A stretch of 64,000 nt of DNA from Pseudomonas phage Presto. Both the position numbers and the translations under genes were made by a program. How positions within the stretch are numbered: position 1 is the first letter of the stretch; every line of letters begins with the position of its first letter. Below are positions 53,298-59,039 of this stretch, one piece after another. The DNA lies in sequence record PQ533662.1; one strand, given 5' to 3'. The notes beneath the pieces are model-generated. The model saw only the letters and a program-made list of their open reading frames with translations, was not told the origin of the DNA and did no database searches.

Positions 53298-53715
53298 CGG
53301 GATTCTCCCGTTTGTAGTAGCTGAAAGGCGGAGTTGCTGGGGTGAGGAGGGCTTCCTCGAGCGGCATGCCTCCGGCGAGCCGCCTGCGGACGGTGCTAGC
53401 CGAGACAGGGCTCGGCAGCGTCTCCACCAGTTCCTCTATGGTTCCGGTCCTGCCGCGAACGGTGTGGGTGTGTTTGTCCTTGCGTGCCTGGCGGGCCTGG
53501 TCCAGCGCGCGGGCGAGTGCTGGCGTGCAGTGGCCCCGTTTCTGCGAGTTGGCCCGCTTGTGGTCCAGTGACTGGCCCTTCGCCGGCCACTCGATATCCG
53601 GCATCAGGGTCAACATTTCGCGGAAGACCCAGGGGCCAATGCCCAGGGCTAGCCGGGTGGCGCGGCGGGAAAACCCGCGCGCGGCGGACTCCCGGATGAA
53701 CTGCTCAGTGTTCAT
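53284..53715 (-). CDS. conserved phage protein, paralog of 5652..6287
   Basis: EQFIRESAARGFSRRATRLALG...VRRRLAGGMPLEEAL. ATGA-coupled to the methyltransferase. Confidence 0.55.
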   Translation of the reverse strand: MNTEQFIRESAARGFSRRATRLALGIGPWVFREMLTLMPDIEWPAKGQSLDHKRANSQKRGHCTPALARALDQARQARKDKHTHTVRGRTGTIEELVETLPSPVSASTVRRRLAGGMPLEEALLTPATPPFSYYKRENPDDQE

Positions 53716-55865
53716 GCTGCCACCGCCTGTTGCGGCGTCGGCCGTAGCCGCCGCTTCCATGGGTCGTTTGCCCGGGCGTATGCGGCCATCGTGTTCGGGC
53801 TCACGCTGTTGCCGCACATGTGGACCTGCTGGGATAGAGTGAACCGCTGCCCGTTGTGGCCCCGCTCGATGATGTAGCTGTCGGGGAAGCCCTGGGCGCG
53901 ATACAACTCACGCGGTTTCAGCATTCGCAGGCGGATGTCGACGATCACGTAGGGGCTACCGCTGATCCAGACCGTGACCAGCGCCAAGCGGTCCTTGGTG
54001 GTGATCGTGGTCAGCGGATCGTCCAGCTTCGCCCACTGCCCGCCGGTCGAGTGGTAGCGCATAAGGAACGCCGACACCCACAGCGCGCCGTCCAATTGCT
54101 CGGGTGTGAGGCTGCCGGCGATCATTTCCGGCGTGACCAGCATGTGGTGACCGCCGGTTGCCACGGTAGGCGTCGGCTGGTCCGCCGGCGTGCTGCTGTG
54201 GCCGGTGGTATTCGTCACCAGCAGGGCGCTGACCAGGCCGTGGTGGTCCGTGCCGGTTTGCGTGCCCAGCGGTCCGTCCACCGGGGCGCCATGCGATCCT
54301 TTCCGCAGCGTTACCAGGTGTGCCGTGGCAAGCTGCTGCTGACTGCCCTTGTTCGTGATAGTGCTGATCGGGGCGTCGGCCGGGCGGCTGTGGGTGGTGT
54401 TGTAGCCCCCGTTGGCCTGGACCATGAACGCGGTGGCCACTCCGCAGTCAGCTTTCGCTGTGATGGTGTACATCGGCTCGGCGACCGAGCGCGGCTCAGT
54501 TTGGCCGGCGCGGCCGCCGACACCGACCAAGACCGCGCTGGCCAAGCCCAGGGCGTGCGCCGCGCCGGCCGGGCGCTTGCACTCGCCGCCGCTGGTGATC
54601 GTCGGCATCGGCTCGTCGACCGGAGCACCGGTGGCGTCGAACCGGAATTTCACCAGGTGGGCGGCGGCAAGCGCGTGCTTCACGCCGCCGGCGACCACGG
54701 TGCCGAGCGGTTCATCCAGTTCAAGGACGCGCGGAGCCTGTCCGTCGCGCTCGCCGTAGCCGACTTGGATCAGCGTCGGGGTGGCAACGGAGAACGCGCC
54801 GCCCTTCGGCCAGGCCGTGACGGTGTTCAGCGGCTGGTCAACGGGGTGGACCGCTTCGCGCGACCAGTTCGCAATGGGAACGATGAAAGGTTGGGCGCGC
54901 TGAAGCACCTCTTTCTCGATGCCCTTTGCGATCCGACGCATCGTCGCCTCGGCCAGCGGGCGCTTCCGGTTGCGGATGGACTGGCCCAGGTCGCTCCAGT
55001 CGATGCACTCGGCGGCCGTGCGGTACGGTTTCATGCCCTTGGCCGGCGTTGCGGCGTGCGTCTTCACTGGCGCCGCAGGCTCGTAACCGTCGGCGACGGC
55101 CACCATGTACAGCCGCTGGCGGCTGGTCGGGTCGCCATAGTCGCAGTTGCGCTCGATCCAGTATTCCAGGGTGTAGCCCAGGCCGCGCAGCACTTCGCAG
55201 AAGTGCGCCCAGCTGCGGCCCTTCGGTTGTCCGTGGCGCGCGAACTTGCAGCGGCGTTTCCAGCGCCTGGCGCTGCTTCCGGTAAGGGCACCGGTGTCCG
55301 GCACAAGGAATTGCTCGTCGCGCGGCACGCGCTCGCCGGGCTGTGCAACGGTGCCGTCGAGCTTCACCACGCGGCCCGTGGCTTTGTCGCGCTTCGCGAT
55401 CAGCGGCCCCCACTGGAGTATTTGCTTCACGTTCTCGAGGCTGATGACCCACGGGCCTTTCCCGTGACGACGCAGCTTGCCGGCCCACTTCGGCACGACC
55501 CACGACAAGTCGCGGATCTCCTTTTTGCGCGGCTGGCCACCGGCTGCTTGGCTGTGGTGCCGGCAGTCAGGCGAAGCGTGCAGCCAGGCAACGATCTTGC
55601 CGCCGGTGCTTTCGAGGGGATCCACGCCCCATACGTCGGTCTGGTAGTGCTCGGCGTGGGGATGGTTGGCCATGTGCATGCTGATTGCGGCCGGGTTGTG
55701 GTTGATTGCCAGGTCGACCTTGCGGCCCAGACCCATTTCCAGCCCGGTGCTGGCACCGCCGCCGCCGGCGAACAGGTCGACGATGATCGCGTCGTCGGTA
55801 TCGTCCAGGGCCAGGCCATACTGCGTCTTGAAATCAAAAACTTGCTTTTTCAGAGCTGCGCTCAT
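53712..55865 (-). CDS. C5-cytosine DNA methyltransferase-like protein with atypical catalytic motif and a roughly 400-aa repeated variable region
   Basis: Motif I DLFAGGGG, ENV motif, RQRLYM (motif VIII-like), LKPRELYRAQGFPDSY (motif IX), CGNSV (motif X). ASPDC sits where PCQ is expected. Six P-x-x-T-I-T modules fill the variable region. Confidence 0.65.
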   Translation of the reverse strand: MSAALKKQVFDFKTQYGLALDDTDDAIIVDLFAGGGGASTGLEMGLGRKVDLAINHNPAAISMHMANHPHAEHYQTDVWGVDPLESTGGKIVAWLHASPDCRHHSQAAGGQPRKKEIRDLSWVVPKWAGKLRRHGKGPWVISLENVKQILQWGPLIAKRDKATGRVVKLDGTVAQPGERVPRDEQFLVPDTGALTGSSARRWKRRCKFARHGQPKGRSWAHFCEVLRGLGYTLEYWIERNCDYGDPTSRQRLYMVAVADGYEPAAPVKTHAATPAKGMKPYRTAAECIDWSDLGQSIRNRKRPLAEATMRRIAKGIEKEVLQRAQPFIVPIANWSREAVHPVDQPLNTVTAWPKGGAFSVATPTLIQVGYGERDGQAPRVLELDEPLGTVVAGGVKHALAAAHLVKFRFDATGAPVDEPMPTITSGGECKRPAGAAHALGLASAVLVGVGGRAGQTEPRSVAEPMYTITAKADCGVATAFMVQANGGYNTTHSRPADAPISTITNKGSQQQLATAHLVTLRKGSHGAPVDGPLGTQTGTDHHGLVSALLVTNTTGHSSTPADQPTPTVATGGHHMLVTPEMIAGSLTPEQLDGALWVSAFLMRYHSTGGQWAKLDDPLTTITTKDRLALVTVWISGSPYVIVDIRLRMLKPRELYRAQGFPDSYIIERGHNGQRFTLSQQVHMCGNSVSPNTMAAYARANDPWKRRLRPTPQQAVAA

Positions 55866-56407
55866 GCCGTCACCCCCTTGCGATGGGTAACCGCGAGAAG
55901 CTCTAGCAGGCGCCGGTGGAAGTGGTATCGCGCGTCAGCTGCGGACCAGGGGCTGATTGGCGCTTGATGGGGCTCGATGCCTTCGAGGCAACCCCATTCA
56001 TCCTGATGGAAGGGCATCAGATCGCGTCGTTCAGTGGCGAGCGCAATCAGGTCCGCGCGCTTCACCTCTGCTGGCAGTTGCTCGTCGAGGTCGAAGCGCT
56101 CACAGATGGCTGACCAGATGACGGCCTCGATCTGCCGGAACTCTGGTAGCAGATCCTTGAGCGGTCGAACCATGTCGCCGATGTAGGCCTCTGTGGCGTC
56201 GTGTAGGAGCGCGGCCAACTGGTGTTCTTCGGGAACCAAGTCGGCAACGAAGTAGCTGTGTTGCGCCACGCTGTAGTGCGGCGCGCAGTGCCCGTTGAAG
56301 CGGCATTGCTGGGCGAGAGCGTGGGCAATGTCGGTCGGATGAATGCTTGCCGGGTCAGGCTGGATCAGGTCGAAGCGGCTGCCGGTGTAGGTGATTATCC
56401 ACGTCAT
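55862..56407 (-). CDS. HD-domain phosphohydrolase (YfbR-like)
   Basis: H...HDATEAYIGD motif. Confidence 0.7.
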   Translation of the reverse strand: MTWIITYTGSRFDLIQPDPASIHPTDIAHALAQQCRFNGHCAPHYSVAQHSYFVADLVPEEHQLAALLHDATEAYIGDMVRPLKDLLPEFRQIEAVIWSAICERFDLDEQLPAEVKRADLIALATERRDLMPFHQDEWGCLEGIEPHQAPISPWSAADARYHFHRRLLELLAVTHRKGVTA

Positions 56408-56415
56408 GGGTCACC

Positions 56416-58177: not shown

Positions 58178-58458
58178 GCCACGTCGTCCTTGTGCTGGGT
58201 GACGGTGATGGACACGCCGAGACGCTTGGCCAGGTAGGAGATTCCAGCCTCGGTGACCATCACCACGCTGTAGTGGGTGTACTGGCCCAGCCTCGGGTTC
58301 CAGCGCGAACGCGGATCCATGAACAGGTGGCCCTGGCCTATGTGCTTGGCCGCAAGGGTGCCGTCCTGGTTCAGGTCCTTGTGCTGCCGCAGGTGGTTGC
58401 GCAGGTCCCGTTCGCTGACGCCGAGGGCGGCAGCTGCTTGGCGGATATCCCGGTTCAT
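58174..58458 (-). CDS. putative DNA-binding protein
   Basis: 94 aa with an N-terminal HTH-like AALGVSERDLRNHL. Confidence 0.4.
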   Translation of the reverse strand: MNRDIRQAAAALGVSERDLRNHLRQHKDLNQDGTLAAKHIGQGHLFMDPRSRWNPRLGQYTHYSVVMVTEAGISYLAKRLGVSITVTQHKDDVA

Positions 58459-58469
58459 GGCTGGCCCTC

Positions 58470-59039
58470 TTAGGCTGCGTTCTTTGCGCGGAGATGGAGC
58501 AGTGCCATCACTTCGTCCAGCGTCTGGTAGAGGTCATTCAGACTGCCGTCGTTGCTGATGAACAGGTCGCGTGCCCCCGGAGTGATGCCCGACTCGCTAC
58601 TGTGTGCGGCGACCTCGGCGGCAACCTGTCGGCGAAGGTGGACGACTACGCCGCCCTTGGCGCGGATCCAGTCCGCCTCGTTGTCGAAACGCACGTCGCT
58701 GATGACGAACCCCTGGGCCTGGGGCATCGCCTCCAGGTGGTTGGATAGGTTCATGTCGGCCAGCAGCAGCCAGAGCTGTGGATGCACTAAGTTGCGGCCC
58801 CACTCGGTGCCCAGCAGTTGCATCAGTTCACGCGGCGACTTGCCCAGCCACGGCAGCGGCTGTTCCTTGGCCGAGCCCTCCAGGGCGGACCCGGGCAAGT
58901 TCAGCATGTCGAGCAGGGCCAGCTTCAGCGGCGAGGCTAGGGCATAGACCAGCAGGCCGAACTGGGCGGCGAGGTAGTTCGCCGCAGTGTCCTTGCCGGA
59001 GCGAGCGCGGCCAGTGAGGCCGATCAGGAAGGGTTTCAT
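58470..59039 (-). CDS. deoxynucleoside monophosphate kinase (T4 gp1-like)
   Basis: P-loop GLTGRARSGKDT. Confidence 0.65.
   Translation of the reverse strand: MKPFLIGLTGRARSGKDTAANYLAAQFGLLVYALASPLKLALLDMLNLPGSALEGSAKEQPLPWLGKSPRELMQLLGTEWGRNLVHPQLWLLLADMNLSNHLEAMPQAQGFVISDVRFDNEADWIRAKGGVVVHLRRQVAAEVAAHSSESGITPGARDLFISNDGSLNDLYQTLDEVMALLHLRAKNAA

Follow-up and report, generated by a model that had tools for sequence, protein, structure and literature searches.

A tandem array of short, non-redundant repeat units in a predicted orphan cytosine-5 methyltransferase of a lambdoid Pseudomonas phage

Introduction

The sequence record of Pseudomonas phage Presto (PQ533662.1) contains, in an operon that reads leftwards, a gene for a 717-amino-acid protein that carries the motifs of a cytosine-5 DNA methyltransferase (C5-MTase), with about 400 amino acids lying between its motifs VIII and IX. 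What might this long intervening region do, and does the enzyme act alone or together with its neighbours? We addressed these questions by computational analysis of a 64,000-nucleotide stretch of the record, referred to below as the window, whose numbering is used throughout. An earlier note on this DNA had assigned the gene to a ‘P4-like island’ and had grouped it with genes for a deoxynucleoside monophosphate (dNMP) kinase and an HD-domain hydrolase as a nucleotide-metabolism and DNA-modification module, whose product might be either a broad anti-restriction methylase or a hypermodified base.

C5-MTases read DNA through target-recognition domains (TRDs) in which two loops flank a conserved TL dipeptide (PMC2790894). 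Temperate phages of Bacillus array several such recognition domains on one polypeptide and thereby defeat many restriction systems (PMC12707154). Here we describe an array of eight diverged repeat units in the Pseudomonas enzyme, and a family of relatives in which the number, type and order of the units vary.

Results and discussion

The 717-amino-acid protein has a complete C5-MTase catalytic core

The gene and its segments are as follows.

53712-55865, minus strand: 717-amino-acid orphan C5-MTase, ‘SPDC’ clade (PF00145, E=7.6e-21; phrog_23072, E=4e-103; phrog_116, E=1e-92)
54840-55865, minus strand: catalytic lobe, amino acids 1-342, with motifs I, IV, VI and VIII, ending in a conserved helical linker
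53922-54839, minus strand: array of eight repeat units, amino acids 343-648, between motifs VIII and IX
53715-53921, minus strand: C-terminal catalytic part, amino acids 649-717, with motifs IX and X; predicted local distance difference test (pLDDT) score ~90

The protein is 100% identical to a protein of phage Meadow. All of the C5-MTase motifs that had been attributed to it were located at the expected positions: motif I, DLFAGGGG, which forms the S-adenosylmethionine (SAM)-binding loop, at amino acid 30; motif IV, SPDC, at 98; motif VI, ENV, at 144; motif VIII, TSRQRLY, at 247-253; motif IX, LKPRELYRAQGFPDSY, at 649; and motif X, GNSV, at 685. Residues F32, G34, G36, G37, S98, P99, D100, C101, E144, N145, V146, T247, R249 and R251 were invariant in 53 diverse sequences, and the motif residues were again invariant when 146 diverse sequences were compared. 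The family profile matched 3g7u (the MTase of prophage CP-933R), DNMT1/MET1, M.HhaI and M.HaeIII, and its segment ‘sPDCkhfskAkG’ aligned on ‘GPPCQGFSSIGKG’ of 3g7u, Cys on Cys; because of this alignment we assign Cys101 (codon 55563-55565) as the catalytic cysteine. The residue that precedes it is Asp and not the canonical Pro, which had been read as the mark of an atypical enzyme. That interpretation did not hold, since 139 of 150 diverse representatives of the family have SPDC, which thus characterizes a very large clade of phages and prophages (at 50% identity, at least 2,077 clusters).

Structure prediction gave the same picture of the core. A first AlphaFold run with 41 close homologues had a mean pLDDT of 35.5, and with the 146-sequence alignment the score rose to ~90 at residues 20-300 and 650-700. 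Foldseek searches with the confident part of the model retrieved C5-MTases exclusively, with 3g7u at 2.4e-10, followed by DNMT1, M.HaeIII and M.HhaI. PADLOC matched the protein to generic MTase models alone, and there is no nuclease gene among the neighbours adjacent to it at the window locus. We conclude that the protein is best explained as an active, orphan, SAM-dependent DNA cytosine-5 methyltransferase, a prediction that comes from sequence and modelled structure. The enzyme class is already known; dozens of phage records give the gene the annotation ‘DNA cytosine methyltransferase’.

The sites into which inteins home are essential and conserved. Four homologues (P0140, P0245, P0208 and P0200) carry inteins of ~355-362 amino acids, composed of a Hint_2 domain and a LAGLIDADG homing endonuclease, that interrupt motif IV precisely at the junction of SPD and C(T/K)HFS, a position that corresponds to amino acids 100/101 of the window protein (nucleotides 55563-55568). 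In these methylases the catalytic Cys doubles as the intein +1 nucleophile. Because the insertions fall exactly at SPD/C, they mark the Cys of SPDC as functional independently of the profile alignment. Another family member, P0285 (914 amino acids), has a LexA DNA-binding domain fused to the N-terminus of the methylase. The family extends to viruses of archaea, as ‘dcm5’ of Halobacterium phage phiH (locus H60, 47750-49507) is 28% identical over 94% of the query.

Eight diverged repeat units separate motifs VIII and IX

The units of the array begin at amino acids 343, 384, 417, 462, 497, 530, 562 and 615. They are 32-53 amino acids long, diverged and non-identical, and each combines a D-x-P-x-x-T-[IV]-T core with a hydrophobic strand and with a polar or Gly-containing loop that is specific to the type. 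Six repeats had been claimed for this region. The six cores that were quoted are all present, and the repetition exceeds chance, with pairwise unit alignments reaching Z-scores of up to 14.3 and 8.3 against shuffled sequences; the count, however, is eight, two units with slightly degenerate cores having been missed (DEPLGTVVA at 384 and DGPLGTQTG at 530). A profile of the repeat unit matched no sequence in the PDB, even at E <= 10.

At the DNA level the only repeats within the array are 28-nucleotide matches of 66-82% identity. The units are thus old and diverged in DNA, and we could rule out recent slippage as the source of variation in their copy number.

The number, type and order of units vary across the family

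Among 120 close homologues, nearly all of them named P. aeruginosa, protein length ranged from 537 to 727 amino acids and the array from 4 to 8 units, with length tracking count. The range was wider in diverse relatives, where the distance from ENV to motif IX was 220-668 amino acids and the number of units 2-11. Unit length across the family had a sharp mode at 33 amino acids. In order to type the units, we took 82 proteins with less than 70% core identity and clustered their 482 units by similarity. About 20 unit types recurred across distant proteins in this set. One type (TKDRxGLVTV...) was always last and another (‘EVRAFLxKYYG’) was almost always penultimate. The remaining types changed position from protein to protein, both orders being seen for 15 of 78 type pairs. 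The same type was present twice in one protein in a single pair, compared with 37.4 +/- 5.9 pairs expected from random assortment. The type-specific loops, which are rich in Arg, Gln, His and Asn, were kept across distant proteins. Some units were 62-66% identical where the cores of the same proteins were 40-44% identical, although this is a best-of-many statistic on short sequences and is suggestive only of units being more conserved than the core.

We then compared substitution rates in the array and the core. The ratio of nonsynonymous to synonymous substitution rates (dN/dS) was 0.10-0.46 in the array and 0.01-0.26 in the core, and nearly all of the amino-acid differences from the protein of phage Turba fall within the array. 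The array evolves faster than the core, but values of this size show that it is under purifying selection and is functional rather than decaying. Segment-by-segment comparison of synonymous divergence (dS) between the window gene (53712-55865) and loci L003, L004, L010 and L014 gave sharply different values along the gene; against phage P54, dS fell from 0.82 in the core to 0.46 in the repeats and 0.12 at the C-terminus. Because dS differs so sharply between segments, we attribute the pattern to intragenic recombination; it indicates that recombination has made the MTase gene a mosaic, with breakpoints close to the edges of the array.

The company kept by the methylase also varies. In phage F116 two adenine methyltransferases flank the orthologue; P54 and many prophages have an 876-amino-acid N6/N4 methyltransferase upstream of it; in AUS531phi another MTase and a Lar gene are nearby; and Burkholderia prophages that have the orthologue also carry Lar, a restriction alleviation function. 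That orthologues keep company with other MTases and with Lar supports an anti-restriction role.

Likeness to the multispecific methylases of Bacillus phages

We compared the protein with the classical multispecific enzymes M.SPRI, M.Phi3TI, M.Rho11sI and M.H2I, and with M.BssHII and M.(phi)BssHII. The Bacillus-phage enzymes share with it an orphan status in temperate phages, a single catalytic core (motifs I-VIII and IX-X) and, from motif VIII to motif IX, a tandem run of short segments that each contain a T-[LIV]-[TS] motif. In both groups motif IX is preceded by a constant segment, ‘DEPAFTVNTIDRHGVA...RKLTPLE’ in the SPR-type enzymes and ‘DDPLTTITTKDRLALVTV...RMLKPRE’ here, and the constant last unit of the array is positionally equivalent to the former. 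In contrast, motif IV is PCQ there and SPDC here, and the hosts here are Gram-negative. The classical enzymes reportedly have 2-5 specificities; there are eight units here and up to 11 in the family. Multispecificity of the 717-amino-acid protein is putative, and the likeness is one of architecture. Monospecific enzymes such as M.HhaI, M.HaeIII and 3g7u have the same fold, catalytic motifs and TL-type recognition motif, but they have ~100 amino acids and a single TL between motifs VIII and IX, where the window protein has ~400 amino acids and eight T-[IV]-T units, and the Pro-Cys of their motif IV is replaced here by Asp-Cys.

The proposal that the protein is a tandem-recognition anti-restriction methylase proved to be the reading best supported by the sequence data, given the non-redundant modular units, the MTase and Lar neighbours of its orthologues and the position in the early-left operon. 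By analogy with the Bacillus-phage enzymes, we give an about even chance to the idea that it works like a multispecific anti-restriction methylase. We favour multispecificity because the units are dispensable, reorderable and mutually non-redundant, and have type-specific polar loops. The MTase is carried in the early-left operon, presumably under repressor control. Each unit would present a conserved P-x-x-T-[IV]-T strand that recalls the conserved TL dipeptide of TRDs, with a type-specific polar loop after it; because of this combination of strand and loop, we infer that the units may be alternative DNA-recognition modules. They would dock in turn with the single catalytic domain, so that the enzyme might methylate several different short targets, or a single relaxed one, while phage DNA replicates. 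Methylation would act after induction or infection and would protect progeny DNA in advance from several restriction systems of the host. The logic would be that of the Bacillus-phage multispecific methylases, reached through a different and more numerous type of module.

Several observations weigh against multispecificity. Homology of the repeats to known TRDs, for which a profile comparison had been proposed, was not detected: a hidden Markov model (HMM) of the unit scored <=2.7 bits against the TRDs of SPR, rho11s, H2 and phi3T and against the TL segment of M.HhaI, and hhalign of the units with the classical TL cores gave a probability of 0.4% over four aligned columns. Because these direct tests failed, we do not file the protein in the SPR-type family; membership by homology is ruled out and only the analogy is kept. 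Classical TRDs are reportedly ~40-50 amino acids long, and the 33-amino-acid unit is shorter. AlphaFold models the repeat array at pLDDT values of 20-45 only, with no assignable fold for the units, and a complete recognition surface formed by a single unit is therefore hypothetical. Vertical descent from a single ordered ancestral array that then lost units would also account for their partly conserved order and for the lack of duplicates. We infer the timing of expression from gene position only, and a literature search of partial coverage, which did not include REBASE, found no methylation data for any member of the clade or for F116-type methylases.

The main alternative is that the repeats jointly form one large β-rich DNA-binding domain, either a single TRD or a clamp, and that the enzyme has one specificity or methylates in a near sequence-independent and possibly processive manner, with the number of units tuning affinity or reach. 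Such an arrangement would account for units without detectable homology to mapped, independent TRDs, and for an order that is partly conserved, 63 of the 78 type pairs being found in one order only. The two constant last units could then be the real TRD core, and the minimal members of the family have only 2-3 units. Non-specific methylases of phages and prophages are, moreover, a known anti-restriction strategy (PMC12707154). We nevertheless consider a single domain rather unlikely. Natural proteins tolerate 2-11 units in an order that is not fixed, unit types are strongly non-redundant within a protein, and the loops rich in Arg, Gln, His and Asn persist across distant proteins; variable count, free order, non-redundancy and conserved loops are more easily explained by a function for each unit. 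Should the array nonetheless be one structural domain, the protein would be an orphan phage methylase of the ordinary kind, unusual only in the length of its recognition domain. That the MTase is mainly an epigenetic regulator, of lysis-lysogeny, of the packaging programme or of host genes, seems improbable to us. Regulation of the viral cycle has been proposed for many orphan phage MTases (PMC12707154), a small helix-turn-helix (HTH)-like gene of 143 codons is translationally coupled downstream, and one homologue bears the LexA fusion; but a variable, shuffled array undergoing rapid amino-acid change is the pattern of an arms race and not of a fixed regulatory motif, and co-localization with other MTases and Lar also argues against a regulatory role.

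Under the multispecific reading, independent units would allow one phage gene to neutralize many of the restriction systems found in P. aeruginosa and related hosts. This would matter for the host range of phages and for how therapeutic phages are designed, and would explain differing patterns of 5-methylcytosine (m5C) between lysogens. More tentatively, and with the balance of our judgement somewhat against it, the SPDC clade as a whole may use a previously undescribed vocabulary of ~33-amino-acid mini-recognition modules, with at least ~20 types, 2-11 per enzyme without repetition and exchanged by intragenic recombination, to make combinatorial multi-target m5C methylases. In literature of partial coverage we found no published account of a modular, non-redundant array of variable copy number in this clade. 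If true, multispecificity would be far more extensive and evolvable than in the Bacillus-phage enzymes and might follow a readable module-to-motif code; with hundreds of natural architectures drawn from ~20 module types, a module-to-motif map could yield programmable cytosine methyltransferases. The array is not yet a demonstrated new mechanism.

The kinase and HD phosphohydrolase are independent neighbours

Two genes of nucleotide metabolism share the operon with the MTase.

58470-59039, minus strand: T4 gp1-like dNMP kinase, 189 amino acids, P-loop GLTGRARSGKDT (PF21448, E=1.8e-29; phrog_139, E=6e-53)
55862-56407, minus strand: HD-domain phosphohydrolase (phrog_318, E=1e-77); its stop overlaps the MTase start by 4 nucleotides

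The kinase, HD and MTase reading frames all lie on the minus strand where the earlier note had placed them, and both functional assignments were upheld. The kinase match to PF21448 exceeds the cutoff, and the T4 gp1 structure 1dek was matched at E=2.2e-15; T4 gp1 has 241 amino acids, and the shorter window kinase lacks T4 residues ~41-129. The HD protein belongs to a PHROG annotated as dNMP 5'-phosphatase, matches 2gz4 (Atu1052 group) at E=1.4e-16 and has the metal-binding motif H...HD...D (‘LLHDATEAYIGD’). Its match to the YfbR-like family PF12917 (E=4e-5) scored 23.8 bits, under the curated cutoff of 25.9, and its subfamily and substrate are therefore uncertain. T4 gp1 and the YfbR/Atu1052-type HD proteins are clear homologues of the window proteins, but neither of the latter is accompanied by a dNMP-modifying enzyme, and so a link to modified nucleotides is not indicated.

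T4 gp1 phosphorylates hydroxymethyl-deoxycytidine monophosphate (hm-dCMP). It was therefore conceivable that kinase, HD protein and MTase-like enzyme, encoded in one operon, install a non-canonical or hypermodified cytosine, perhaps with a group other than methyl, the more so as one of the nearest solved relatives by sequence, the phage C5-MTase homologue CmoX (8yf3), is a carboxymethyltransferase. In CmoX an active-site Arg replaces the Asn of motif X, and the enzyme depends on a phage CmoA, which synthesizes carboxy-SAM (Cx-SAM), usually together with a CmoY ligase (PMC12783734). CmoX recognizes GC with a TRD of ordinary size. Its motif X reads GRMV, with the diagnostic Arg, whereas the window protein has the canonical GNSV, and there is no CmoA in the window region. 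These two differences rule out carboxymethyl transfer, and ordinary methyl transfer is expected.

Nor did a hypermodification pathway find support in Turba, the closest complete phage, whose gene set includes no thymidylate-synthase-like or other dNMP-modifying enzyme, dCTPase, TET/5mYOX, glycosyltransferase, CmoA or CmoY-like ligase; of the components of a T4-like pre-replicative pathway only the kinase is present. The kinase is set apart from the HD gene by five unrelated genes, and kinase and HD are unlinked to the MTase in every other genome examined. With partner enzymes absent, the Asn of motif X kept and the linkage not conserved, we reject hypermodification and regard it as very improbable.

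The proposed functional module fared no better. No HD or kinase gene was found beside the MTase in the phages and prophages examined outside the Turba/Lodos/Meadow lineage. In sibling prophages the slot of the HD gene is filled by the 876-amino-acid N6/N4 methyltransferase (L010-L012, 3374-6004; L003, 35-2665). Downstream of the orthologue, some prophages have a PF04447 dATP/dGTP pyrophosphohydrolase and a DUF4406 protein, siblings also an SNF2 helicase. In a number of prophages a 69-amino-acid LexA_DNA_bind protein is encoded just upstream of the MTase pair (L010/L011, 3020-3229). PADLOC matched no defence-system model among the neighbours. The genes around the constant MTase look like interchangeable accessory cassettes, and the grouping of MTase, kinase and HD protein is an accident of where they lie in the operon. 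We regard the HD phosphohydrolase and the kinase as independent accessory nucleotide-pool genes that share an operon in this lineage only. Whichever reading of the array is correct, the ‘nucleotide-metabolism module’ should not be annotated as a pathway.

Organization of the early-left operon

A promoter-like site at 59613-59586 precedes the operon, which is read leftwards. Its order is a 106-amino-acid open reading frame (ORF), the dNMP kinase, a KilAC-like gene, a phrog_8889 gene, a PrtN-like gene, a 43-amino-acid ORF, a 244-amino-acid protein, the HD protein, the MTase, a 143-amino-acid phrog_3190 protein and genes of unknown function. The kinase gene is not contiguous with the HD/MTase pair, from which it is separated by five other genes. 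The claim of translational coupling agrees with four 4-nucleotide start/stop overlaps, at 59036-59039, 58174-58177, 55862-55865 and 53712-53715. The remaining genes with assigned positions are these.

59036-59356, minus strand: first gene of the operon, 106 amino acids, annotated ‘D-alanyl-D-alanine carboxypeptidase’ in Turba
57576-58458, minus strand: three small early genes between the kinase and the HD/MTase pair, from profile matches and Turba annotation
58174-58458, minus strand: KilAC/Ant-like gene
57809-58177, minus strand: phrog_8889 gene
57576-57812, minus strand: PrtN-like regulator
56416-57150, minus strand: 244-amino-acid protein whose N-terminal segment is hydrophobic, encoded after the regulatory genes and before the HD gene
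53284-53715, minus strand: 143-amino-acid phrog_3190 protein (E=1.5e-63), whose start overlaps the MTase stop by 4 nucleotides

The carboxypeptidase annotation of the 106-amino-acid gene looks unsupported, because the protein has no Pfam or PHROG match here. The 244-amino-acid protein had no match in Pfam, NCBIfam or PADLOC, and the PHROGs that it matched are all of unknown function.

A phrog_3190 gene follows the MTase, or the MTase pair, in every P. aeruginosa phage and prophage examined. It occupies the same position in Turba, P54, AUS531phi and L014-L017, and in L010 the homologue directly downstream of the MTase orthologue is 85% identical. The Burkholderia loci have no counterpart, which rules out a universal partner of the MTase; the protein may be a lineage-specific partner or regulator.

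The element is related to complete lambdoid phages

The element is, by its genes and DNA matches, a lambdoid temperate prophage of Pseudomonas aeruginosa, with 50-64 kb of the window as its left arm. The region shares 92-97% DNA identity with phages Meadow, Turba and Lodos. The complete genome of Turba measures 42 kb and has 51 genes; it and Lodos, the complete relatives of the region, carry terminase, portal, capsid, tail and lysis genes. The control region is lambdoid, with a CI/S24 repressor facing the Cro-side operon, and integrase and Xis.

50196-51497, plus strand: integrase
51503-51718, minus strand: AlpA-type Xis
59586-59613, minus strand: candidate early-left promoter, σ70-like TTGACT-16-TAATAT, from a consensus match
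59673-59693: cI terminator, with the candidate promoter downstream of it
59711-60376, minus strand: CI-like repressor with HTH and S24 peptidase domains (PF00717, E=1.9e-22; phrog_4, E=7e-36; Turba annotation)

The label ‘P4-like island’ is wrong, because the DNA matches complete phages such as Turba, and the lambdoid control genes are likewise at odds with it. A P4-like satellite, without structural and lysis genes of its own, is ruled out by the presence of such genes in Turba and Lodos. In the lysogen the early-left operon is presumably silenced by the CI-like repressor.

A perfect hairpin with an 11-bp stem (8 G-C pairs) lies at 51493-51517, between the convergent integrase and xis genes, and scores as a terminator on both strands. 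No tRNA gene is present within 6 kb upstream of the integrase (44000-50200). The GC content in this upstream region drops to 0.56 at 46-48 kb.

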